The position numbers were made by a program, and so were the translations under genes. DNA of 63,991 nt, the filler included, from Basidioascus undulatus (lineage: Eukaryota): NCBI GenBank assembly GCA_000826855.1. It is 10 parts of 10 records of this genome, joined end to end, with 100 filler letters (N's around TTAATTAATTAA, not from the genome) between each part and the next. Parts side by side here need not be neighbours in the genome. Positions count along the whole stretch, not along the records: positions 25,934 to 32,309 come from JTLS01001756.1; 9 more parts are not named here. One strand, given 5' to 3'. Positions 6,390 through 58,234 of the stretch are shown here, in pieces. The notes under the pieces were generated by a model, which was given only the letters and a program-made list of their open reading frames with translations, ran no database searches and had not been told where the DNA came from. Numbering within the stretch: position 1 is the stretch's first letter; each line of letters opens with the position of its first letter.

Positions 6390-6489
6390 NNNNNNNNNNN
6401 NNNNNNNNNNNNNNNNNNNNNNNNNNNNNNNNNTTAATTAATTAANNNNNNNNNNNNNNNNNNNNNNNNNNNNNNNNNNNNNNNNNNNN
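6390..6489. other. Artificial contig linker
   Basis: 44 N + TTAATTAATTAA (stops in six frames) + 44 N. Confidence 0.98.
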
Positions 6490-8364: not shown

Positions 8365-9270
8365 ACGGTCGCAGGATGCGAACGAGGATGTAGAGGGGCG
8401 GACGAGGACATGCTGCTACATGGCCACCACTAATGAATACATCGGGAGTCATGTTGTGGACTGAATCCCACAATGAGGTTGTCGGTTCGGAAATTAGTCT
8501 TGCTGTTAGATGAACGAATGGAGATTTGCATGTGGACCTCCAGTCTCGCCTGTCTTCTCAACCCGGACTGTAACTTCGCTCGTCATCGCAGTACTCTTAT
8601 TTGAGGCCGGGAATCCTCGGTTATTCGGACTGCAAACTTGAGTAACTAGTGGCCGTAATATTGAGCGTACGCAGGAATGCAGCGGTGGACTGGTTCCTGA
8701 CACGCCAGCGAAACTTCCGGTCAGCATGTACCTCCAGCTGGTCGACATTCTCCCATTTTCTAATTCATCAGCAATTCTGTCAAACATTCTAAGACGTGGC
8801 GATCTTGCACACACAGCGAGGTACCTAGCAAGGGAGCCAGGTGATGCCGCTGAAACGTCCGTCCGCCATCGCGCTTCGTTTCTACCCCTGGCGAGCCGGT
8901 GCAATCAGCGACATGGAGTAGCTCGCCGACTCCCTTTTTAGACCAAACCTCCAGATGGCATTGATTGCGCTCTCGTCAATCTTGTATAAAGGGAGCGGTG
9001 GACCGAAGTGCAGGTTGACCAGGATTCCCCACATTCTCGCTTTCAGCCTCGCCTAGCGCGGTGCGTCGACACAACCTTAAAGCGAGACGGCGAGAGACCG
9101 AGCTGATCATGCTGAATTGGGGGGGGGTTTCAGATACTTTTTCAACTCAGTGCAGGTTCACGCGCATCTTATACGACTTCAGCCGGTCCTGAACGTGCGT
9201 CGCAGCCTTCCATCAAATCCACCTTCCCATGCGTGTGGCTGACCGACCCTCCCATGGCCTGACAGGCACC

Positions 9271-10414
9271 ATGTTCTCGCTCCTCCTTCTCGTCCTCCTC
9301 CTCTTCACCCCCCTCGCTGCCATCCCCACCCCGCCCCTCGCCCCCCGCAGCGCGATCGACGACATCTTCGAGGCCGCCGCCGGCGCGGGCGGGCTCGTCC
9401 TCAACGGCGGGGCTTCCAACCTTCTCAGTACCTTCCCGGCTACCCAGAAGGGGTGCGAGTACCCGAATGCCAGGAGCAGGGGCGTCGGGGACAGCATCAC
9501 TGGCGGAGGCGGCGGCTTTGACGCGGGCGCCATCAAGAAGTCTCGGTCGTGGATAACCCTGAATTGACTGCGTATGCTTGGATTTTTCTGCGGAGACTGG
9601 GTTGATGGGCTTTCGGGGATGTAGACATGGCTCGGCTGCAGATCGTCGGGGCAATGTGCAAAAGCAAGACGGCGATCGCACCGGTGCGTTTCTCCTTTCT
9701 CTGTCGCCTTGCGACCGCCCTGACTTACCCTCCTTATGTTGATTAGGTAAATGAAGCTGCCGCGGCATGCTAGTGAGTCTCTACTCAATGATAGCTCCCG
9801 CCAAGCCGCATCTGATAGTCGACCGCTTCTTCAGCGAACCGGACGTCCTCGCCACTGTTCCGCTCGTCCAAGCCGGCCTCGACGGCGCCACCTCCAACGT
9901 GTTCGTCATGGGCGACGCCATCGCGGCGGCACTCCGCCCGAGGAGTCGTGCGTCTCCCCGCTCTCTCGCTCCTTCGTGACGGCATGCTGAATTCGGTCGA
10001 GTGGACGCCATTTCTCGCAGGCAAGGCAACGTCGCCGTCTCGCTTACCGACGCTACCGAGGCCGCTGGCTCCATGTCGGAGAAGATAATCAACCCTTCGC
10101 CGGAGCTCGATTCGGCCATCTCTACCCTCATACAGAAGCTTGGTGCGGCGGGCTGCGCGGGCGAGGACGTGCTGACTACCAACGTGCGTTCTGCTTGCCC
10201 TTGTCGAGAAGGAAGATCCAGAGCTAACTGAGTCATACCCTCCATCGACGATACGCAGGACCGCACGATCGAGGGTGTTATTTCCCCGGAAGATGCCGTT
10301 CGCGTCCGGGCTGCACTTCAGGAGAGCTTGTTTCAGTCGGTGCACTCGGCTGGTGGCGGGTGTTTCTTATTGCGGCGCTGCCGGGCTTTACAGGCTGCGG
10401 GTGGATGTACATAA
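9271..10414 (+). CDS. Hypothetical secreted protein (multi-exon; 3' end uncertain)
   Basis: Signal peptide MFSLLLLVLLLFTPLAA-IPTPPLAPR. GC3-rich exons separated by GT-AG introns. TATAAA near 8985. Confidence 0.55.
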
Positions 10415-10814
10415 GAGGGAGTTTCATCATGAACATTCTGAATTTTGTAATATTCTATTCTTTGCGGTGCTCATGCATGTACGCGAGGGGACGCGGCAAA
10501 AGATCAGTGCCGGGTTGAAAACTTGCATCGCACGGCAGTCTGCTTTCAGGGTCCACCAGCGCTTGCAGTCTTGAGTGAGCACATTCCGAACAATAGAGGG
10601 ACGGTGAGCAGCCAACAGATCGGACTCGTCGTGTTTGCAAGGGTGAAAAAAGCAAGAGCGTGCGCGTCAGGGGCGGATGTATCCTCGTCTGACGTGACCC
10701 CTCGCGTGCGCCCGCAGCTGTCCTGGAGGCCCACTCGACCCTCGACCATTCCCTTGACTTTGACCTTTGGCTGTAGCATGCTCGTACAATAAAACAACAT
10801 CGACACTGCCGACG

Positions 10815-12876
10815 ATGTCCAACTTGTCGACGAACCGGGCGTCGCTGTTCCCCGCTGCGTCAGTGGGGCGCAACGCCGGGCGGGACCTGCTCAAGCAGAA
10901 CTCGCCCGAACAGCTCTCGACGCACCCGCTCCTTTCCCAGTCCTCTTCCGCGACATCCACGACAAACTCGCCCACACCGGACACTACTTCCTTCCCGCCG
11001 CCATCCCCCAACCCTTCCACTGCAACAACCACCACCTCGACCTCCTACGCCGTCTACACCCGCAAGCCCAACCCCGCCAGCGGCGACCACCCTGCGGCCG
11101 GTAGCGGCGCCAGCGTCACACACAAGCTGCAGATGCAGCAGCTCAGGGCCGCCGCGCAGGACCTCGGGCTCGGCCATGACAGTGCCGGGTGGGTCTTCTT
11201 GGAGAAGATCGTCGCGGGCCAGGCGAGGTCGGGAGACGAGGGCAAGAAGTGGAAGGAGATCATCGCCTTGGCTTCGAGTGATAAGGTGCGTTTCCTCCTT
11301 ACTGAAAAGCAGTACAGGTCTCCAGAGGCTCACAACGTACGCGGAGGTGCAGGCAACTCTCCTCCTCCCCACGCCTGCGCTCCCTACCTCGATCCAGGTC
11401 ACGCCCCAGCTCGTCAAAGACCACATCCTCTTCCTCTCCTTGGCGTCTTCATCCGCCGCCTCCGCTGCTAGCAGCACAAGATCGGGCGGGGCGGCCGGCA
11501 CAGCAGTCACCGCTTCCGGAATCAGGGGCACCTCTGAAGCGTGACTGTTGCTGTGGCTGCTGCTGAGGAAGCTCGTGCTGATGACGAGGGGTTACGCAGA
11601 GACCAGCTCGTTCTCAAGGGCTTTGTTCCTGATGGAACCCTGCTTCCTAAGCTCCTGGACCCCGCTACTCGCAGGTTGGTCAATTCAACTCCTTCCCTTC
11701 TTTTAGACTGGGACTTAAGCCCAATCATGTCGCAGCACGACCCTCACCGCTCTTCCCCCTCCCCCCGCCTCGCCTGCACCGACTAAGCCTTCCTTCCCGA
11801 CGTTCATCCTCCTCTCGCCCTCTGCAGCCCTCCCTCTGCCCCCGTCGCCCGCTGTACCTCCGCCTCTTCCCCCACGACCTCGCGCGCATTCGTCTACGAA
11901 CCCCTCATCGCGTCCAGCCGCACGGTCGACGTTCGCAGCCCTCTTCGGCGGGGGCGACCGCAATCCGCAGCCGGCGCCTTCGTTACAGGTGCCGAGCCCC
12001 GACCGCCCGAGCACCCCCGACGAACAGCCGCCGCAGCAGGAGCCTCCGCCCGTGGTCAACCTGAACGGGTGCGCGGTGGACAAGCTGCTGAGGCTGGAAG
12101 AGATTCAGCGAGGTATCACGAAGGCGATTGAGGGGCGAGTTAAGGAGGGCCTGGGGGGGTTGCCGAGTGGGGTCATCGACAGAGTGTGCAAGTGCGTTAT
12201 CGTCGCCAATCTCGCACTCTCTTCCTCTCACTGCCGCTGACGCAGCCGTGCAGCTTCATCACGCAGTACCACCCCTCCCCGCCTTCGGCCGCGCTCGCGC
12301 TCGCCAAGCGTCCGCCCAAGAAGCCGCCCCTCCCGCCGCCGCCGCCGCCGGACCTCTCCGATTCGGACGTGGCGAACCGCGTCGTGCAGGAGCTTTTCGT
12401 GCGCGTGCACACGGACGTGTACAACGCCGCGTGGGCGGGCTTCGTTAAGGGCTGGAAGGGCGAGAAAGAGGTGGAGGGCGCCGAGCAAGAGCGGATGGAG
12501 GATGAGGCCGAGGACCGTGCCATGGAGGCGGTGGAGAAGGTTGAGAATGTGCTTACGACCGAGCTGTTTGACCGGTAAGCGCCAACGCTGCTTTTCCCGG
12601 TTCCCCCGGAAACGCATATTGACGATTGCGAGCAGTTTGTTCTCCTGCGCGCCCTCCGACACTGTCGCGGATGACTCGCTCGCTTCGCGTATCGCAGCGC
12701 TTAACATGCTTGACCTCAGCCTCGACCACCTCGGCGTGCAAGTGCCGGACGCCGAGCCTGGCGCAGATGCCGAGGCGGACGCCCGCAGGGGCCTCGAGGA
12801 GGTCGTCGCAGCGTGCGGGAAGGAGCTGCAGCGCTTGGGCGGCTGCGCGAGTCCCGCGGACAAGCTCGATGTGCTA
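10815..12876 (+). CDS. VPS9-domain Rab5 GEF, 3'-truncated
   Basis: LFDRLF...DDSLASRIAALNMLDLSLDHLG...ACGKELQRL..CASPADKLDVL is typical of the fungal VPS9 domain start. Long spliced N-terminal region. Confidence 0.8.
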
Positions 12877-12976
12877 NNNNNNNNNNNNNNNNNNNNNNNN
12901 NNNNNNNNNNNNNNNNNNNNTTAATTAATTAANNNNNNNNNNNNNNNNNNNNNNNNNNNNNNNNNNNNNNNNNNNN
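12877..12976. other. Artificial contig linker
   Basis: N44-TTAATTAATTAA-N44. Confidence 0.98.
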
Positions 12977-19355: not shown

Positions 19356-19455
19356 NNNNNNNNNNNNNNNNNNNNNNNNNNNNNNNNNNNNNNNNNNNNT
19401 TAATTAATTAANNNNNNNNNNNNNNNNNNNNNNNNNNNNNNNNNNNNNNNNNNNN
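19356..19455. other. Artificial contig linker
   Basis: N44-TTAATTAATTAA-N44. Confidence 0.98.
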
Positions 19456-25833: not shown

Positions 25834-25933
25834 NNNNNNNNNNNNNNNNNNNNNNNNNNNNNNNNNNNNNNNNNNNNTTAATTAATTAANNNNNNNNNNN
25901 NNNNNNNNNNNNNNNNNNNNNNNNNNNNNNNNN
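25834..25933. other. Artificial contig linker
   Basis: N44-TTAATTAATTAA-N44. Confidence 0.98.
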
Positions 25934-28148
25934 CGCCCTACCCTCCGCCGCCGGCGTACAGGCCCCCTGCGGCTGTGCCGGCCGCGGGTGCCGGTGCGCA
26001 GGCGGGCGGGGGCGTGGAGGTGCTCAGGCAGAATAAGGAGGAGTTCTTTGGGTTCTTGGATGAGGTACGTGGAGCCTGCCATGAGCTCGCATGTCTCACT
26101 CGGAGCTGAATGTGACGGGAGGATGCCAGTTCTTCGCCTACCGCGGCGTCGGCTCAGCGCGCGGCTTAGCGCGCACGCAGCCAGCTGCTCAGCCCCCGTC
26201 CCCTACTCAACCTCAAGCACAAGCAGAGGAAGAGGCAGACGAGCCTTCTCCTCCGCCTCCGCCTTCGAATCGCCCGCGCCCGAGCGGCGTCGCATCACGC
26301 TTCATCCCGCCGCCGCCCCGGCCAGCTGCTCTCGACGACGAAGAAGCGCCTGTACGTGTCCTCCCCCTTCGCGATTCTTCCCAATTGCAACCCCACCAAT
26401 CTTCTTCTCGCGCGCTCTACATCTGTCACGGACGAACGCTGACCATCATCTCGTCTTTCTCCTCGTGTTGTGCCTCGGCCCACAGCCCATCCCCAGCTCC
26501 ACCCGACCGAGTTAGACATCTATTCCTTATTGAATGTATGATCCCGAATAACGACCGACTGATCATGCATGCTCGTGCACCTCACCACCGCATATCAGGT
26601 CTGCCCGCTCAACACTCCTCGTCTGCGCCTGCTTCGCCTGCCCCCGCGCCTTCCCCGCACGACAGTCCGTCTTCCCTCATCCCAACCTCAACCTGCGTCT
26701 TCAGCGCGTCCCGTCGCCGCGCGTGCCCACTCACCCACCATCATTGCCCCTCCACGCATCCTTCAGGACCAGAAATCTGCGAAGCGCACTTGCTGTGTCT
26801 CTTCTTCCACCCCTCCAACACGTGGACCGAGCCGTGGTTCATCCCCACCAACGGTGTGATGGACGTGCCTCCCCCCGCGCGGGGCACGCACATGCGCGCC
26901 ACGAGCGGGTTCGGGCAGACCACGAGCTCGGGCGGGGTGGCGCACGCGGAGTGGACGGGCTACGTCGTCCACTCCGACGACAGCATCTCGTGGTTCTACG
27001 TCGCGTACGACCCGGCCGACCCGCTCGGCCACAAGCTCGTCAGGCGGGCGGCGTACAAACCGCGCCCGGACGTGGAGCCTTGGGACGGAGGGAGGCTGTA
27101 TAGGGAGGCGGAGATTTATGGGGAGCTGGTGGCACAGTTTGCGGAGAGCGCGGAGAGGGACGGGAGACATGTGGGGAGGGGCGAGTGCTGGGTGCGTTGG
27201 CTTCCTTTCCCTTCCCTTTCCCATCCTTCCCATCCTCACCTTGCCTCGCTTTCCCCGTTCACTCACTTACGCGCTGTGGCCCCGCACAGGACCTCGCCGA
27301 CCAAGCCTTCAAGCACATAATCACCTCGCACCCGCACGTCCCGCCGCCCATCGGCTCCGGCCCCAAGCGGCAGCACGGCGCGCTCATCTACCGGGGCGGA
27401 GTGGACCCCGCTACGGGCGCACAGTGGGGCGAGTGGCGCGGCGGGGAGAACAGCGTGCGCCGCGGCGACATTGCGGAATGGTGTATCGCCGAGATCGCAA
27501 TTGATCAGAAGCTGCCGGATGGGAGGAGAGTTACGGGGATGCAGAGGATGGGGGCGCCGGAGTTAGGGATGCCAGAACAGTACGTTTGAATCCTCCATCC
27601 TCTTTCCCCCTTCCCCATTTCCAACCTTGTATGTCCACATTTAGCGTGGACGCTGATGCAATTGACGGGCGAGCGCAGTACAGGAGTGATCGTCCGCGAC
27701 TCGCCCCTACCGCCGCACTTCGTCGATTCCGTTCCCGCCGCGCTCGGTGGACAAGTTCTCCCCTCTGACCTCGTCACGCTCGAGACGATCGACCAGGGCA
27801 AGCATATCTTGCCTAAGCGGTCGGTGCTTGGTGCGTTCCACTTCCCCGCTCACAGTCCCTCTTCCCCTTTCCCCACCTCCCTCTATTCCTCCTGATTCAC
27901 TTTCCTTTCTTCTTGCCTTTCTCCTCCCCTTTCCTTTCTTCTGTTCATTTCTTCTTTCATTCGGCTCTGGCGCCTTGAGAGGAAGTGAGCCGGATCTGAA
28001 TGGACGGAGCGGCCCTGCAGATCTACGGAACCTGAAGAAGGGCGAGATGTGGATCTACCGTCCCATTGGGAAGGCCGAGTGGTATGACGGGGAGGAGCCG
28101 CGCGCGCAGTGGCCCCCGCCTCCGGACGCGGTGGTTGTCGCTGTGTGA
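25934..28148 (+). CDS. Pro-rich protein with a BBC1/AIM3-like C-terminal cysteine-proteinase-fold domain, 5'-truncated
   Basis: YGELVAQFAE...VGRGECW|DLADQAF...HGALIY...VRRGDIAEW...GMPEH|TGVIV...GEMWIYRPI, a permuted Cys/His arrangement of the fungal BBC1-like C-terminal domain. Confidence 0.75.
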
Positions 28149-29061
28149 GTGTGGAGGTGCGGATCGGGAGCTGGGGGGAATGGGAAGCTGGGGAAGATGG
28201 GACGCTGGGAGGAATGGTGGCTGGAGAAGGGGAAACGGAGGAGGGTTTGGGTTGGGACGATTCGTGATAACACCGGGGTTGACGCTGGAATGCACTTCTT
28301 TTGCTTTTGGCCTTCAAGTGACGATTTCGCGGCTTAGTCTGTCTGATCTGATTTCGATGCTCTGCTCCGGGCGTTAACGGAGGGTCCAGACGCGTGTGGC
28401 ATGACCGGCAGCGAGCCGCAATGCATGAGCGGTTGGTTGGATAGGACGCAGTGAGGCGGGAGTAGTCTCGTTATGTTTCGCAGCCTGCGATCGGCTGACT
28501 GCACGTTTCCGGGATGCTGCCCAACCCCATTTCTCTTCTTGACTCTCATCAATCAACAGTTGCGTTGTAAGTTTCATTCTCTTTTTCATCCTCCATCCAA
28601 AACGCGCAGATTTGGGATATCGATATGCTCGCTCGCTTGCGTTTCTGCCGGGCGAAAGACACTTTTGTCACTCATGTCTGGGTGCTATAAAACTTACGAA
28701 TAAATTTTAAGGAATCCAAAAAGAGATAATTCCGTTCACTTTGTCGGTATCATGATCTTGTGCGCACACGCACGAAGAAACACGAGGCAGCCCAGCTTCC
28801 TGACGTCCTCGTGTTAACGGTTCAAGTCTATCCACTGCGCCGTGGCTACATGCCTTTGAATTTACCTCAAAGTCGTGGCAACTAGTAGTCTGGCTGTTGT
28901 TGCACGCTTGTGGTCCCCCACGCCGGGCTGGCATGCATCTGCAGCCGTACATGGGATCCCGATCCACTTTCAGCTCCTCTTACCACTTTCCTCTTCCCAT
29001 TTCCATGCTTCTATCAACTGGCCTACATATTAGTCATATCGGTTCGACTTCACCCACGTAA

Positions 29062-29803
29062 AATGACCACGACCCACATCGCTCACGTCGTACGTCGTTC
29101 AGCCCTCCTTCCGCACGCCACACGGTCCCTGACCCCATCTATTCGTGTGGCTTTATCCTGTCGGTTCTATTCTCAAAATGGTAGGATCTTATAAACTACT
29201 GCAACGATCCGCCTCCGGGCGTCTCAACAGATACGAGCGCGCAGCCGCCGCCGCCGCCGCTGTTGAGCAGGCGCAGCCCACACGTCGTTGAGCATGAGTA
29301 CGTCCACCTACAGTTGAGTTCTCCATTGGTAGATTAACTTATTTACCTCAGGTTCAGGACCAGTCCTAGTATTGTTGGCTCACCTCCTTTCACGCCCGCC
29401 GGCGCCGACACCGCGATGGACGTACTCGAGGTGAGGACGGAGGATGCGAGGCCGGTGCGCAAGCGCAGGTTGCGCAAGCCTGCCCAGTACAAGAAGCGTC
29501 ACAACGTACGCCTAGTCCTTTATCCCTCCCCCCTCTTGCCATTGTCCCATAACCCTACACCGCGTCCCTTTCTTGCGCGGAAGGACTATACAGTCGAGCC
29601 CCATTGGAGATGCTCCTCGCCGCCTCACGCCGGACGAGATTCGCTGGCTGTCCCTCGCCCATCAGCGATTGCCCATTGCCAAGCGCGAGTGGCGCGTGCT
29701 GAGCAAGCGCATGAAGGAGGAGCACGGGCCTCGGGCGGTACCCGGCTTCCATGCCCACGCCCCAGGTACGTTGAGGAAGCTGTGCATGAAGCTGGGGGCT
29801 TGA
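29062..29803 (+). CDS. Small hypothetical, possibly mitochondrial protein (exon structure uncertain, may be degenerate)
   Basis: Presequence-like MTTTHIAHVVRRSALL...CRFYSQ, with a final coding-like exon RRLTPDEIRWLSLAHQRL...KLGA*. Confidence 0.35.
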
Positions 29804-30726
29804 GGAGGTCGGCCACGGATAGGAGGAGGACGAGGAGAGGGGGACCAGAGGCAGGAAGTCGGGAGGTTCGAGGACAAAGCTTTGATATCTCCGTTCGCTT
29901 CTCTTACTTCGAAATGCACTTTTACATAGCTTTCCCGCTCAGCAGAATGCTTCCCTGTCTTGATAATGACATGAGCTTTTGTGGCTTGTCGAAAATGTGG
30001 GCCGATACCGTCACATGGCTTCAAGTTCTTGCCGGCCTCAACAATCATCGCAACCTCTTCCAGGGCGGACACACAGCCAAACAACCTTTCAATGACGCCT
30101 CAGAGTCGGAAAAAGCAGTTTCGAATTTAACACTTCTCTGGGACTGGGCTTCATTGGCCGGGTACTCTTGCTGCGCCAGTCAAGTGGAGCATGAAACCTC
30201 GTATCTTCTTCGTTCCATCTAACATCACCTCCCATTTCGGCATGCACACACCAGTTATACCGTCTGAAGTCTTACACACGGTGATTTCTTGAAATGAATG
30301 TGAGACAGGCCTTGCAGGCAGTGCGAGCGTCGTTCAGGCCCGAGCATCAACTTCATGGCACATGGCCAATGCCGTTGAGAATTCGCATGTCTTCCATCTA
30401 GAACCCGCAACCAATTTTATCTCTTTGTTCGCACGACAGTCATGCTCTCGACCCCAAACAGAATGCTCACAGCAGAACGCTCGTCCGAACGCTGCGATGC
30501 GGCCGCTGTGCTGTGAAAAGGAACGATCCAGCCGTGCGCAGGACATTTCCCCTCTTTCACTCAAGTCTACCAGTCGCAGTATATTTCTAGCGAAAACATT
30601 ATATTATAAAAGGTAAATACTTTTTCTTGGGGTACTTCGTTTACGCACGGATATGGACGGCCAGACTGACTCTGCTTCATGTGCTGTTTCCGTAGCATCT
30701 ACACCGCTGTACCTCCGCCCTCCGAC

Positions 30727-31275
30727 ATGGCGACCTGTGATGCTCACTCATTCTGCCTCGAGTTTCACCCGTCGAACTGGCCCAAATCCTGGTTTGCCAC
30801 TCTGACTGCCCGCCCTCCTCCGCTGCCGAGCGCATCTCCGGACACCGACTGGGGCAGCCGGTCGAGCAAGCACGGTTCCTCGCGAACGGGCTACTTCTGT
30901 GCTGTCTGCCCTGACGACAGGATCGCGTGGCTCTCAGTTTGGACCGGTCCGATCCGCTGAACGCATCGCTGAGGACGCGTACGGCGTACCGACCAAGTCC
31001 GCTGGACACAATCTGGGATCGCCGCGAGCTTCGTGCCGCGTCCACGACCTATGGGGAGCTTGTTGCCCAGTTTGCAGAGGAGGAGTGGAGAAGGGACGAC
31101 CCGTGGGGAGGGGAGAGTGTTGGGTATGTTGCACTTTCATCTGTGCTTCCTAGCATAGAGCGTCAGCTTACCTAGCCATCACTTCTCTCAAACTTCTACT
31201 TCTGACCCCTAACAGGACCTGGCCGACCGCGCGTTCCGGCACATTTCTTCCCACCATCCCCACATCCATACACCC
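30727..31275 (+). pseudogene. Decayed tandem paralog of the BBC1-like domain gene, truncated at 31275
   Basis: CDAHSFCLEFHPSNWPKSWF (paralog CEAHLLCLFFHPSNTWTEPWF), YGELVAQFAEE, frameshift to VGRGECW, same intron position, then DLADRAFRHISSHHPH (paralog DLADQAFKHIITSHPH). Contains a stop and frameshifts. Confidence 0.8.
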
Positions 31276-31277
31276 CT

Positions 31278-31973
31278 GCAGAGTTCCGTGACGAAATCAA
31301 AATCGTCCATCTCCTCGCCGATATTCTGGATCCGAAAGATTTTACCATTTTCCCTGTGGGTACCTATGCCCCATTTCGCGCTTGTGGGGACACACAGTTC
31401 CTGGATATCGTGGTCCAGCACATACCGACTGGTATTCGCTTTCTTGTAGAGGTGGATGAAAATTGGCATCGTTATTATAAACAAATGTGTGAATGGAAAA
31501 AAAATTTAATGCATAGCCAGAGTTTACTTGCAACCCCGGAAGTGAAAGGGGTTGTAGACATTCGGATCAATCCCAGCGCATATAAAGTGAACGGAGAAAC
31601 CGTGCGCACCGAGTTGTCCAAAAGGGTGGAGGTACTTGACGAGTTCATCAAGGAATGCACATTAATGGATGGAGACACAGAACCAGTCCGTGTCTTTTAC
31701 ATGTTCTATCCTTCAGATAACGGTGAGACCGACATTATCAAAGAGATAGAAAAATCCATCATTCACGACTGGTTCGAACGCTTGCAGTCCACCGGAGAAG
31801 AAAATGGATCTTCAAAAGAAAGACGCGATGTGGGTGCCATGGTCGCCAATGGCACCGGGGAGGAATGTAGCGTAGCAGAGCTGAAGGAATGGTTGAAGGA
31901 CCATTCAGTTAAAGGCGCCAGTCGGAAGAGAAAGGCTGATCTTATAGCTTTAGTAAAGTCAGCTAGAAGATAG
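31278..31973 (+). CDS. Giant-virus (NCLDV)-type PD-(D/E)xK/Vsr-like endonuclease with C-terminal SAP/HeH-like domain; intronless, 5'-truncated
   Basis: FLDIVV...FLVEVDENWHRYY...CE...IRINPSAY...RVEVL...YMFY mirrors the NCLDV endonuclease pattern D...EVDENQH..Y..CE...IRFNPD.Y...LFY. C-terminus SVAELKEWLKDHSVKGASRKRKADLIALV. AT-rich, and no ATG precedes the nuclease motifs in this frame. Confidence 0.7.
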   Translation, partial: AEFRDEIKIVHLLADILDPKDFTIFPVGTYAPFRACGDTQFLDIVVQHIPTGIRFLVEVDENWHRYYKQMCEWKKNLMHSQSLLATPEVKGVVDIRINPSAYKVNGETVRTELSKRVEVLDEFIKECTLMDGDTEPVRVFYMFYPSDNGETDIIKEIEKSIIHDWFERLQSTGEENGSSKERRDVGAMVANGTGEECSVAELKEWLKDHSVKGASRKRKADLIALVKSARR

Positions 31974-32030
31974 TTAGAAGTGTTAGCAAAAATTGAATAA
32001 AAATCAATGTGTAAATCAATTGCCTTCTTT

Positions 32031-32309
32031 GTTTGTTGCGAACTTGCATTTTTATCCATTAGACAAAAAGTTTTACAACGGTAAATATCATATTGCGCAT
32101 ACCATGTTGATATCTTCGGAATAGATTGGTTCCGTTATAACATTCCTGTTTGGTGTTTGGTGATGAATTCGACGAGCTCTGCGAGGGCCGCTCTTTTGAG
32201 TTCCTTCTGTTTAAGATCTGATGTGGCTTCATTGAAATCGAAAATAACGCAACATTGCTTGAGCTTTCGAATAAATAGGTCTTGGCAGTCAGCGGCCTGT
32301 GCGTCTTTG
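32031..32309 (-). pseudogene. Fragment of PP2A regulatory subunit B' (B56), frameshifted and truncated
   Basis: [50 protein letters not shown] /frameshift/ [16 protein letters not shown], a 60-nt intron (32102-32043; GTATGC...CTAAT...AAG), then FATN, after which similarity ends. Confidence 0.85.
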
Positions 32310-32409
32310 NNNNNNNNNNNNNNNNNNNNNNNNNNNNNNNNNNNNNNNNNNNNTTAATTAATTAANNNNNNNNNNNNNNNNNNNNNNNNNNNNNNNNNNN
32401 NNNNNNNNN
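32310..32409. other. Artificial contig linker
   Basis: N44-TTAATTAATTAA-N44. Confidence 0.98.
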
Positions 32410-32410
32410 C

Positions 32411-34774
<2,364 letters not shown>

Positions 34775-38783: not shown

Positions 38784-38883
38784 NNNNNNNNNNNNNNNNN
38801 NNNNNNNNNNNNNNNNNNNNNNNNNNNTTAATTAATTAANNNNNNNNNNNNNNNNNNNNNNNNNNNNNNNNNNNNNNNNNNNN
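38784..38883. other. Artificial contig linker
   Basis: N44-TTAATTAATTAA-N44. Confidence 0.98.
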
Positions 38884-45254: not shown

Positions 45255-45354
45255 NNNNNNNNNNNNNNNNNNNNNNNNNNNNNNNNNNNNNNNNNNNNTT
45301 AATTAATTAANNNNNNNNNNNNNNNNNNNNNNNNNNNNNNNNNNNNNNNNNNNN
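45255..45354. other. Artificial contig linker
   Basis: N44-TTAATTAATTAA-N44. Confidence 0.98.
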
Positions 45355-51679: not shown

Positions 51680-51779
51680 NNNNNNNNNNNNNNNNNNNNN
51701 NNNNNNNNNNNNNNNNNNNNNNNTTAATTAATTAANNNNNNNNNNNNNNNNNNNNNNNNNNNNNNNNNNNNNNNNNNNN
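51680..51779. other. Artificial contig linker
   Basis: N44-TTAATTAATTAA-N44. Confidence 0.98.
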
Positions 51780-58134: not shown

Positions 58135-58234
58135 NNNNNNNNNNNNNNNNNNNNNNNNNNNNNNNNNNNNNNNNNNNNTTAATTAATTAANNNNNNNNNN
58201 NNNNNNNNNNNNNNNNNNNNNNNNNNNNNNNNNN
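58135..58234. other. Artificial contig linker
   Basis: N44-TTAATTAATTAA-N44. Confidence 0.98.

Follow-up and report, generated by a model that had tools for sequence, protein, structure and literature searches.

The sequence of Basidioascus undulatus analyzed here contains a short AT-rich island that directly adjoins a broken host gene and carries part of a nuclease gene, raising the question of whether this DNA is a genuine part of the genome and, if so, where it came from. The window, i.e. the entire stretch of 63,991 nt that we analyzed, consists of contigs of about 6.4 kb strung together by 100-nt linkers (44 N + TTAATTAATTAA + 44 N), and therefore the island is the end of a single contig, namely the last 1,032 nt (31278-32309) of the 6,376-nt part from JTLS01001756.1 (25934-32309). 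By both linker map and composition this contig holds the whole finding; the linker after it (32310-32409) is artificial, and the sequence past 32409 is a separate contig unrelated to the island. The GC content of the island is 0.432, as against 0.583 +/- 0.043 in the 1,036 other N-free segments of 1,032 nt in the window, none of which (0/1,036) is as low, and 0.585 in the host-like part of the same contig (25934-31277). A recount reproduced exactly the G+C values given in the first-pass annotation (19/60 at 31441-31500 and 17/60 at 31981-32040), and the composition shift agrees with the alignment of a host paralog, described below, in supporting the foreign AT-rich island joined to a truncated host gene that was reported there.

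The island adjoins a broken host gene

The contig encodes two tandem copies of a gene, both on the plus strand, of which the first (26760-27586) is intact. Its first exon ends in ...GRGECW at 27191 and is followed by an intron (27192-27289) and by an exon that reads, from 27290, DLADQAFKHIITSHPHVPPPIGSGPKRQ...; in Pfam the product is matched weakly, and not up to the curated cut-off, by the AIM3/BBC1 cysteine-proteinase-fold domain (E 1.4e-5 to 5.5e-5). The second copy (30727-31277) is a pseudogene with an ATG at 30727, a first exon that contains indels relative to the paralog and ends at 31123, an intron (31124-31215) and an exon remnant (31216-31277) that translates to DLADRAFRHISSHHPHIHTP. 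DNA homology between the two copies stops at about 31274-31277, where the paralog goes on as IGSGPKRQHGALIYRGG..., and homology to the nuclease family starts by 31281, placing the junction between host and foreign DNA at 31275-31280. An abrupt end of the host pseudogene exon at about 31275-31281 had been noted at first pass: both DLADRAFRHISSHHPHIHTP and CCCCTGCAG (the latter at 31273-31281) are present as described, and the intact paralog confirms the break. The other half of the broken gene was not found in the 63,991-nt window. An in-frame fusion of the host exon to the downstream ORF was considered and rejected, the host frame running through 31216, 31219 and so on and the ORF frame through 31278, 31281 and so on. 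As a separate observation, the CAG at 31279-31281 is a candidate splice acceptor. Upstream of the broken copy, a contig of the small run X3, which covers just 30582-30920, shows the removal of an intron at 30611-30693 (GT..AG); this is a spliced host transcript and has no bearing on expression of the island.

The host itself is a basidiomycete, an identification that holds at the level of the phylum. In a search with a GH31 exon all named matches among the 120 listed are from Basidiomycota, with Wallemia first at 67% identity, in keeping with the basidiomycete-like host proposed earlier. The GC3 of two host exons is 0.70-0.77.

As the island is terminal on a short contig, the assembly is fragmented, and the composition changes abruptly at a CTGCAG site, the island might be an assembly chimera or a contaminant wrongly joined to a host contig. 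The first-pass annotation had deemed a chimeric contig equally possible. Two runs from two samples and two studies, differing in depth, contig count and year (X1, 2014; X2, 2025), contradict that assessment. Each has 0.99 of the sampled words of 30700-32309, and in each a single, independently built read-derived contig spans 29300-32257 without a single difference or gap, extending 1,975 nt to the left and 982 nt to the right of the junction. These bridging contigs have depths (17.1 in X1 and 52.4 in X2) similar to those found for the other flank contig (16.4 and 46.8), each value being one mean figure per contig rather than a position-wise depth at the junction. Because the read-derived contigs of both runs cross 31275 without a difference, the junction is no assembly artefact; it is real, in the sequenced strain rather than for the species as a whole, since either run may be a source of this very DNA. 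A chimeric origin is thus largely refuted, and we regard it as very improbable.

The ORF encodes a truncated Vsr-like nuclease domain

Most of the island is taken up by an ORF on the plus strand (P0001; 31278-31973) of 231 codons and a stop, with the first in-frame ATG at residue 70, just as expected from the initial description of an intronless ORF of about 230 codons that lacks its N-terminus and ATG. Not one of 20,000 shuffles of its letters was free of stops. The ORF starts at the junction, which corresponds to the ...R.E.KV... segment of the family, and the DNA upstream of this point is homologous to the host gene. The A/T-ending codons ascribed to it hold up in a relative sense only: its GC3 is below that of the host exons (0.49 vs 0.70-0.77), with 119/231 codons ending in A or T. 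The spacer that follows (31974-32090; GC 0.27) contains an AATAAA on the plus strand (31996-32001), 23 nt past the stop, which might serve as a poly(A) signal.

Residues 1-175 of P0001 (31278-31802, plus strand) make up a Vsr-like PD-(D/E)xK nuclease domain. The motif series noted at first pass (D...EVDENWH...CEW...IRINP...FYMFYP) is present, as are all the residues conserved in the family, namely D43, E58, D60, E61, H64, C71, E72, R96, N98 and P99. Of these D43, E58, D60, E61 and H64 show little or no variation both in 37 and in 11 aligned relatives and are candidate counterparts of the Vsr catalytic residues. The AF2 model (pLDDT 83.2) has a restriction-endonuclease-like alpha/beta core fold, and its best solved match is Vsr of E. 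coli (PDB 1cw0, chain 1cw0_A; Z 8.6, rmsd 3.0 over 114 residues), with a Z at the upper edge of that seen for models without a clear match. In all, 42 solved chains are matched at Z>=5, and these are mostly PD-(D/E)xK nucleases. A Foldseek search of the PDB with the same model returned none at E<=1e-3, the same nucleases being recovered weakly (best E 3.5e-3), and the family profile matched no solved chain among the PDB sequences (best E 0.14, unrelated). At the sequence level Pfam does not match P0001 to any of Vsr, DUF559 and DUF2726 at E<=1. Hence the fold bears out the Vsr-type PD-(D/E)xK endonuclease first proposed, with no Pfam family match to accompany it. Among the known families, a remote relative (P0133) matches DUF2726 weakly (E 5.6e-4, below the cut-off) and one DUF559 cluster scores 0.88 in the ESM Atlas; our literature search on DUF559 in giant viruses found no paper. 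Vsr and DUF559 have a motif style of the form hydrophobic-E-x-D-(G/E)-x-x-H, which P0001 would share. Vsr is a bacterial repair enzyme, whereas the P0001 family is eukaryotic and viral and is fused to zinc-finger arrays.

The C-terminus of P0001 (31869-31970, plus strand) has a putative two-helix tail of the SAP/HeH/LEM-like type, as judged from Pfam, the model helices and the alignment. The Pfam matches are to HeH (E 3.3e-4) and also to Ish1 and Rho_N, all below the cut-off, and the helices of the model (199-208 and 216-230) are of lower confidence. Such a tail is found in 0/36 aligned relatives. P0001 is a 5'-truncated Vsr-like PD-(D/E)xK nuclease domain with a weakly recognizable SAP/HeH-like tail, of a kind for which nuclease activity may be predicted.

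A fragment of a PP2A-B56 gene

On the minus strand at 32091-32308, Pfam and two-frame alignments to human B56-gamma detect a pseudogene fragment for the PP2A regulatory subunit B56. The Pfam B56 profile (PF01603) matches with E 1.4e-15 (57.6 bits vs a cut-off of 25) over profile positions 5-56 of 413, and human B56-gamma matches the first frame with E 2.9e-14. This frame reads KDAQ...VEFITKHQT, after which the homology changes frame inside CAAACACCAAACA (32147-32159); the second frame aligns to human B56-gamma weakly (E 0.017), and its 40 aa give no match in Pfam. The homology ends at a GTATGC intron donor (32097-32102), so that about 70 of the 413 profile positions are present, with none further before the 3' end of P0001. 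A word-indexed protein search with the 57-aa B56 piece yielded 38 candidates and no match. The fragment has a GC3 of 0.47, vs 0.70-0.77 in the host exons. It is a piece of a cellular gene that has been frameshifted and truncated, and its outer part recurs in a second sequence context of the genome.

Two further candidates for the nature of the island were tried and rejected. A repeat mutated by RIP is out, in that the indices are not RIP-like (TA/AT 0.61, (CA+TG)/(AC+GT) 1.31) and the ORF has no stops. A mitochondrial insert (NUMT) can likewise be set aside, as we infer from the nuclear-type B56 fragment and the open reading in the standard code.

Relatives of P0001 and their phyletic distribution

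A HMMER search of 1.84 billion representatives recovered 151 matches to P0001 at E<=1e-3 and 28 at E<=1e-10, the best with 42% identity (E 4.7e-30); in turn, the family HMM scores P0001 at 222 bits. The matched region is usually C-terminal in a longer protein, where it is preceded by CxH...CxxCGG repeats, a zinc ribbon, EsV-1-7 repeats or C2H2 arrays. An N-terminal zinc-binding module, in the form of Cys-rich, EsV-1-7 or C2H2 repeats with a CxxC...CxxCNP ribbon, is found in all full-length relatives and is absent from P0001. These searches delineate an unnamed, widespread nuclease family in which EsV-1-7, C2H2 or Cys-rich arrays precede a Vsr-like domain; the family is without a Pfam model and ties chytrid genomes to giant viruses.

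The closest sequence relatives (37-48% identity) are proteins from chytrid genomes and from unnamed metagenome contigs. Names were looked up for 30 of the 151 match clusters, and the other 121 could include a basidiomycete member; six of the 30 are named, all from Chytridiomycota (two each from Synchytrium, Phlyctochytrium and Geranomyces). The closest named relatives are Synchytrium microbalum TPX30789.1, S. endobioticum TPX51072.1, Phlyctochytrium arcticum KAI9101848.1 and KAI9103182.1, Geranomyces michiganensis KAJ3162312.1 and G. variabilis KAJ3171377.1, all of them uncharacterised. The five aligned chytrid proteins are 31-40% identical to P0001, and that of G. variabilis is 51% identical over 69 residues (HMMER). 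They belong to the same subfamily as P0001, marked by GTYAPF.CGD, and to the same part of a quick tree, in which P0001 falls in a set of 34 rows (SH-aLRT 87) with all 5 chytrid rows of the tree. This set excludes the GVMAG, EsV-1-7 and C2H2 groups; the place of P0001 inside it is unresolved, and the branch of the set is not starred. The chytrid copies are full genes on contigs of 88 kb-1.46 Mb. P0001 differs from them in its tail and in being a truncated leftover within a basidiomycete genome.

Other searches reached less far. A word-indexed protein search with P0001 gave 253 candidates with 0 at E<=1e-3, and P0001 on its own found no relative among metagenome contigs, as opposed to the alignment of its subfamily, which found three loci there at 37-40% identity. 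The best of the metagenome relatives (L002, 38%) has as neighbours an RPB2 gene that is split and an ATPase containing a fungal AAA+ lid domain. In the ESM Atlas no usable match was obtained with the first 560 residues of P0003, the nearest relative. Taken at the level of sequence, the affinity of P0001 appears to lie with chytrid proteins, the best relative being only 42-48% identical.

Giant viruses as a possible source

The first-pass annotation had proposed that the island is endogenised giant-virus (Nucleocytoviricota) DNA or an HGT fragment; on the viral reading the nuclease would be viral and the B56 piece either cargo derived by the virus from a host or a second, unrelated fragment. 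Its premise that this type of nuclease is common in these viruses is well founded: 18 of the 27 fold matches in BFVD at E<=1e-3 are named giant viruses (cedratvirus, pithovirus-like, marseillevirus-like, HaV01, AaV and others), and the nearest ESM-Atlas clusters, at scores of 0.94-0.95, are 85-100% viral, mostly Nucleocytoviricota. Further, an ORF in a GVMAG (L001:6762-8318; 30% identity) unites EsV-1-7-like repeats with the nuclease domain and lies beside a C962R/D5-type primase. The giant-virus proteins (e.g. Brazilian cedratvirus A0A2R8FFX4, Pithovirus LCPAC404 A0A481ZD22 and HaV01 A0A1C9C5F7) have the fold of P0001 (Foldseek E 6e-9 to 1e-3), the EVDExxH ... CE ... IRFNPD motifs of its family, and the same order of zinc-binding repeats, zinc ribbon and nuclease. 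The higher AT content of the island and the intronless ORF also fit such a source, as do the fossils of a pithovirus-like lineage in six fungal phyla reported in PMC7017919.

However, the viral members are more distant from P0001 (18-31% identity in the fold alignments, 30% for the GVMAG) than are the chytrid and metagenome ones (37-48%); P0001 belongs to another subfamily, has the SAP/HeH-like tail and lacks the N-terminal module, and the tree parts it from the GVMAG group. No relative was found in IMG/VR on scanning with P0001, nor with two exact patterns from the alignment of the closest subfamily, a kind of pattern that can miss relatives, and scanning with B56 found no close relative there either. 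The B56 fragment with its spliceosomal donor is a cellular feature, and the 1,032 nt of the island contain no hallmark gene of these viruses, Pfam giving just the weak HeH-type match and B56. With the closest named relatives in chytrids, the tree position apart from the GVMAG and no relative from the IMG/VR scans, we consider a viral source rather unlikely. A viral vector stays plausible, since the fold family is abundant in giant viruses.

The comparison with endogenous giant-virus elements of fungi is instructive in this regard. As described in PMC7017919, PMC10640383 and PMC13533422 (the last on Mycodnaviridae), these are likewise foreign, compositionally distinct nuclear DNA, and the island shares with them a gene of a type common in these viruses. 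Hallmark genes (PolB, MCP and others) define these elements, and the reports of them come from early-diverging fungi, whereas the island has no visible hallmark gene, resides in a member of Dikarya and includes a cellular gene fragment.

Provenance of the island

The reading we favor, with roughly even confidence, is that the island is real, non-functional DNA of non-Dikarya origin that was acquired horizontally and now resides in the nuclear genome of a basidiomycete. It would comprise at least two gene fragments placed tail to tail: the 3' two-thirds of a nuclease gene, whose product would be a zinc-finger-guided Vsr-like PD-(D/E)xK endonuclease with an unusual SAP/HeH-like tail, and the first ~70 codons of the conserved core of PP2A-B56, frameshifted and cut after an intron donor. 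A break repaired by non-homologous end joining is the presumed route by which this patch became linked to the second of the tandem AIM3/BBC1-like copies, which was truncated and probably gained its frameshifts since. As donor, a eukaryote outside Dikarya, of the zoosporic-fungus type, is most likely, or else a virus or mobile element carrying such cellular DNA, with the transfer presumably directed into the basidiomycete. Full-length members of the family are most likely selfish, site-specific DNA cutters, in which the N-terminal arrays and the zinc ribbon would select the target and the C-terminal nuclease cleave it. The copy in P0001 should do nothing, because it is without the targeting module and a start codon; as a dead fragment it is of low direct biological importance. 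It can be argued that the insertion is recent, because the reading frame and the putative catalytic residues are intact. An insertion is indistinguishable from a larger rearrangement here, because the contig stops before the right-hand end of the island is reached and the rest of the host gene falls outside the window.

Alternatively, the island could be part of a resident, multi-copy selfish or mobile element (a transposon, a Polinton-like element or a homing-type nuclease) that is AT-richer than the host and captures genes, with no recent transfer between phyla. Both of its genes are fragmentary, as in gene-capturing elements, and according to PMC10748475 Vsr-type nuclease domains travel with virus-like transposons of eukaryotes. 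The poor sampling of the host lineage is a further point in its favor, and an old resident element is possible because this lineage is deep, as indicated by the 67% identity to the nearest GH31. Another point is the shared segment that starts at 32228 (32228-32309 on this contig, and about 2.9 kb more in X1), where the read graphs of X1 and X2 both branch: depth rises to roughly twofold at 32228 (from 17.1 to 41.6 in X1 and from 52.4 to 91.2 in X2), the segment has two different left flanks in both runs, and the assembly contig stops ~80 nt into it. The doubled depth could equally mean two haplotypes, and neither terminal repeats nor further copies of the island are present in the 63,991-nt window. 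A B56 gene captured from the host should also retain a host-like GC3 in place of the observed 0.47, and Dikarya account for none of the 6 clusters that have a name out of the 30 looked up, despite the plentiful basidiomycete proteomes in that search space. On balance a resident element seems rather unlikely to us.

Returning to horizontally acquired DNA, even a dead fragment of this kind has some wider interest. Integration of DNA of the chytrid or giant-virus type into a basidiomycete would be a small, concrete data point on the reach of such DNA, because the giant-virus papers place the known elements in early-diverging fungi and question why Dikarya are uninfected: the text of PMC7017919 makes no mention of Basidiomycota or Ascomycota, and PMC13533422 asks why Dikarya go uninfected by giant viruses. 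A more far-reaching version, which we hold to be doubtful, is that the island is the visible margin of a larger foreign region, which has part of its sequence in common with the second sequence context and whose source was either a zoosporic fungus or a giant virus of the kind infecting such fungi. If true, it would be the first trace in a basidiomycete of contact with giant viruses or of DNA transfer from chytrids to Dikarya, and the nuclease family would have gained a previously unseen SAP/HeH-tailed architecture. The locus also points to where the full island could be recovered: in the reads, the shared segment runs at least 1.3-3 kb past the end of the contig.

A truncated host gene joined to compositionally foreign DNA

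The AT-richer island at 31278-32309 combines fragments of two foreign genes, arranged tail to tail, in a patchwork that is joined to a truncated duplicate of a host gene. It occupies the final 1,032 nt of the piece at 25934-32309, one of ten pieces that, as the linker map shows, make up the 63,991-nt window in place of one continuous chromosome segment. The pieces are separate contigs, joined by nine copies of the same 100-nt linker (44 N, TTAATTAATTAA and 44 N; at 6390-6489, 12877-12976, 19356-19455, 25834-25933, 32310-32409, 38784-38883, 45255-45354, 51680-51779 and 58135-58234); any feature spanning one of these linkers in this record is artificial. The joined contigs are near-equal in length and mostly in descending order, nine being of 6,325-6,389 nt and the last cut at 5,757 nt. 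The DNA past the linker after 32309 comes from another contig and is the mid-part of a poly(A) polymerase gene (32410-34100, with PAP_central and PAP_RNA-bind domains); the contig edge cuts into this gene, and the missing N-terminal portion must be on another contig. A GH31 exon in a different piece of the window has exclusively basidiomycete named matches among the 120 listed, with Wallemia at the top (67% identity), indicating that the host is a basidiomycete and has no near sequenced relative in the searched collection.

The host exon remnant, DLADRAFRHISSHHPHIHTP, stops at about 31275, within ...ACACCCCTGCAG, and its abrupt end is as the first-pass annotation described it. An intact paralog lies on the same contig about 4 kb upstream, at 26760-27586; there, exon 1 runs to 27191 (...GRGECW), an intron occupies 27192-27289 and the exon after it has the sequence DLADQAFKHIITSHPHVPPPIGSGPKRQHGALIYRGG... 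The broken gene (30727-31277) is the truncated, frameshifted downstream copy of a tandem AIM3/BBC1-like pair, both members of which match the AIM3/BBC1 cysteine-proteinase-fold domain weakly (E 1.4e-5 to 0.03, below the cut-off). At the DNA level the two copies can be aligned through ...CAC ATC CAT ACA CCC CT (31274-31277), beyond which the alignment collapses; the second copy is therefore truncated in mid-exon, in line with the first-pass annotation, and its indels relative to the paralog mark it as a pseudogene. The pseudogene or its promoter seems to be transcribed, as a 256-nt contig from a small sequencing run (X3), covering the 5' part, has the upstream intron at 30611-30693 (GT..AG) spliced out. 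The junction at 31273-31281 coincides with CTGCAG, which is both a PstI site and, with its pyrimidine run plus CAG, a good look-alike of a 3' splice site; we take this to be a coincidence.

The junction in independent sequencing runs

The first-pass annotation had held a chimeric or contaminant join to be an equally possible explanation. Two DNA sequencing runs, X1 (2014) and X2 (2025), derive from two samples in two studies, both flagged as possible sources of the DNA; of the words sampled from 30700-32309, each run contains 0.99. In each run one read-derived contig crosses 31275, spanning 29300-32257 without a single difference or gap (compared over 29300-32309); these bridging contigs are of 6,465 nt at depth 17.1 in X1 and 7,240 nt at depth 52.4 in X2, depth being a single figure for each contig. 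Depth, the number of contigs and their lengths all differ between the runs, which are therefore separate data sets. A chimera that arose in a single library or assembly would not appear in both, which argues against that alternative, and the join is very likely real in this strain. At 32228-32257 the graph of each run forks: the contig running on to 32309 and beyond has a roughly doubled depth (41.6 in X1 and 91.2 in X2), and another contig, 5,497 nt long, enters from a different left flank at depths of 16.4 and 46.8. This branching implies that the DNA rightward of 32228, a segment bearing the PP2A B56 fragment, is common to a second sequence context, i.e. two loci or two haplotypes, and explains why the assembly contig stops at 32309.

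Composition and gene content of the island

The island has a GC content of 0.432 as against 0.583 +/- 0.043 (minimum 0.486) in 1,036 further windows of equal length and free of N, none of which is as low. The local G+C counts reported earlier, 19/60 at 31441-31500 and 17/60 at 31981-32040, were exact on recount. GC3 is 0.49 in the nuclease ORF and 0.47 in the opposite-strand gene piece, as against 0.70-0.77 in two host exons; the preference for A/T-ending codons noted earlier thus holds relative to the host exons, 119 of the ORF's 231 codons having A or T in third position. The spacer between the two gene fragments has a GC of 0.27 and contains AATAAA. RIP-type mutation of the island was also considered, and RIP indices do not indicate it.

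The ORF is much as first described, an open frame of about 230 codons lacking an ATG: at 31278-31973 on the plus strand there are 231 codons plus a stop, with the first ATG not before residue 70, and none of 20,000 letter shuffles was stop-free. Its product, P0001, obtained in Pfam only weak two-helix matches to HeH, Ish1 and Rho_N (residues 198-228), and a word-indexed protein search found no relative. A HMMER search against 1.84 billion representatives recovered 151 proteins at E<=1e-3, 28 of them at E<=1e-10, the best with 42% identity (E 4.7e-30). The match region is usually C-terminal in proteins of 350-750 aa, which bear upstream of it at least one of CxH...CxxCGG repeats, a CxxC...CxxCNP zinc ribbon, EsV-1-7 repeats (3/33 scanned relatives) and C2H2 arrays (10/33). 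P0001 starts exactly at the family's ...R.E.KV... segment, immediately after the ribbon; with the junction, the gene has therefore lost its targeting module and its start codon. All the invariant or near-invariant residues of the family, namely D43, E58, D60, E61, H64, C71, E72, R96, N98 and P99, are present in P0001, and its SAP/HeH-like tail is absent from all 36 aligned relatives.

An AlphaFold model of P0001 built from 37 sequences (pLDDT 83.2) has as its best solved-structure match the Vsr endonuclease 1cw0_A (Z 8.6, rmsd 3.0 over 114 residues), followed by VC1899, BpuSI, ngo0050, a RAP module, Bax1, Can2, Hjc and others; Foldseek against the PDB retrieved the same kinds of nuclease weakly, and the family profile matched no solved chain by sequence. 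The label of a Vsr/DUF559-like PD-(D/E)xK enzyme is hence sustained at the level of fold but not of Pfam membership. From their architecture and fold, full-length members are probably zinc-finger-targeted selfish DNA endonucleases. PMC10748475 shows that Vsr-type domains move with Polintons. That the island is a resident mobile element of the host lineage appears unlikely. One relative, P0039 (748 aa), has two tandem EsV-1-7-plus-nuclease modules; in another, P0029, the gene model fuses the nuclease domain with a C-terminal piece of Hsp70, probably through mis-calling of two adjacent eukaryotic or viral genes.

The second fragment, on the minus strand from 32308 down to about 32103, encodes the beginning of the PP2A B56 conserved core (Pfam E 1.4e-15, profile positions 5-56; human B56-gamma E 2.9e-14). 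Past ...VEFITKHQT the homology goes on in another frame for 16 residues, contiguous on human B56-gamma (E 0.017), the frame shifting within CAAACACCAAACA (32147-32159); this frameshift is real, since X1 and X2 agree with the window letter for letter. The exon ends at a GTATGC donor, and no further B56 sequence was found between this donor and the 3' end of the nuclease ORF. Judged by its sequence, the piece comes from a cellular gene that has introns and a codon usage unlike the host's; a pattern scan of IMG/VR detected no B56 relative.

Provenance of the island

The proposal that this nuclease type is abundant in Nucleocytoviricota agrees with a fold search of predicted viral structures: at E<=1e-3 there were 27 matches, 18 to named giant viruses, 8 unnamed and one, of low probability, to a herpesvirus protein. 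In the ESM Atlas, too, the nearest clusters are mostly Nucleocytoviricota, and a degenerate motif scan of IMG/VR recovered one relative, a 518-aa ORF with EsV-1-7-like repeats in a giant-virus MAG, adjoining a C962R/D5-type primase in DNA of GC 0.29. Together these indicate that the family is truly common in giant viruses. According to PMC12477816, EsV-1-7 domains are otherwise known mostly from giant viruses. Endogenisation of a giant virus is, however, not upheld on present evidence, and a giant virus as the vehicle is improbable: organisms were named for six of the best 30 clusters looked up, all of them chytrids, and a quick tree places P0001 apart from the giant-virus MAG. This tree has 73 rows: of 145 domain rows it takes the 70 with the highest scores, together with labelled ones, and leaves out 72 that scored lower. 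P0001 falls within a 34-row set (SH-aLRT 87, not starred), at no settled position inside it; the set holds all five chytrid rows of the tree, with the giant-virus MAG, EsV-1-7 and C2H2 groups outside. Motifs characteristic of the subfamily found no relative in a pattern scan of IMG/VR and three in metagenome contigs; the longest of these, on contig L002, adjoins a split RPB2 gene and the genes of an EsV-1-7 protein and of an ATPase whose AAA+ lid is fungal, a neighborhood that by its gene content is a cellular, fungus-like context. PMC13533422 treats giant viruses of zoosporic fungi and asks why Dikarya are uninfected. PMC7017919 reports remains of a pithovirus-like NCLDV lineage in six fungal phyla, and a term search of its text gave no mention of Basidiomycota or Ascomycota.

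Hence, the initial observation is confirmed and its interpretation partly supported: the island is a genuine, small, dead horizontal-transfer remnant with a giant-virus/chytrid-type nuclease fragment in a basidiomycete. Its DNA is probably of non-Dikarya origin, and we give about an even chance to a cellular zoosporic-fungus-like donor or unknown vector as the vehicle, in preference to a giant virus. Most economically, foreign DNA would have been end-joined into a dispensable gene copy, with the host copy decaying after the join; the still-open nuclease frame suggests that the event was recent. The interest of the remnant is as a pointer to a larger island concealed by the fragmented assembly.

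On L002, a 14.8-kb contig, the nuclease relative (within 9018-12818) is full-length (412 aa) and lies 0.9 kb from a 551-aa protein of eight EsV-1-7 repeats, which hints that nuclease and EsV-1-7 modules travel together even when unfused.
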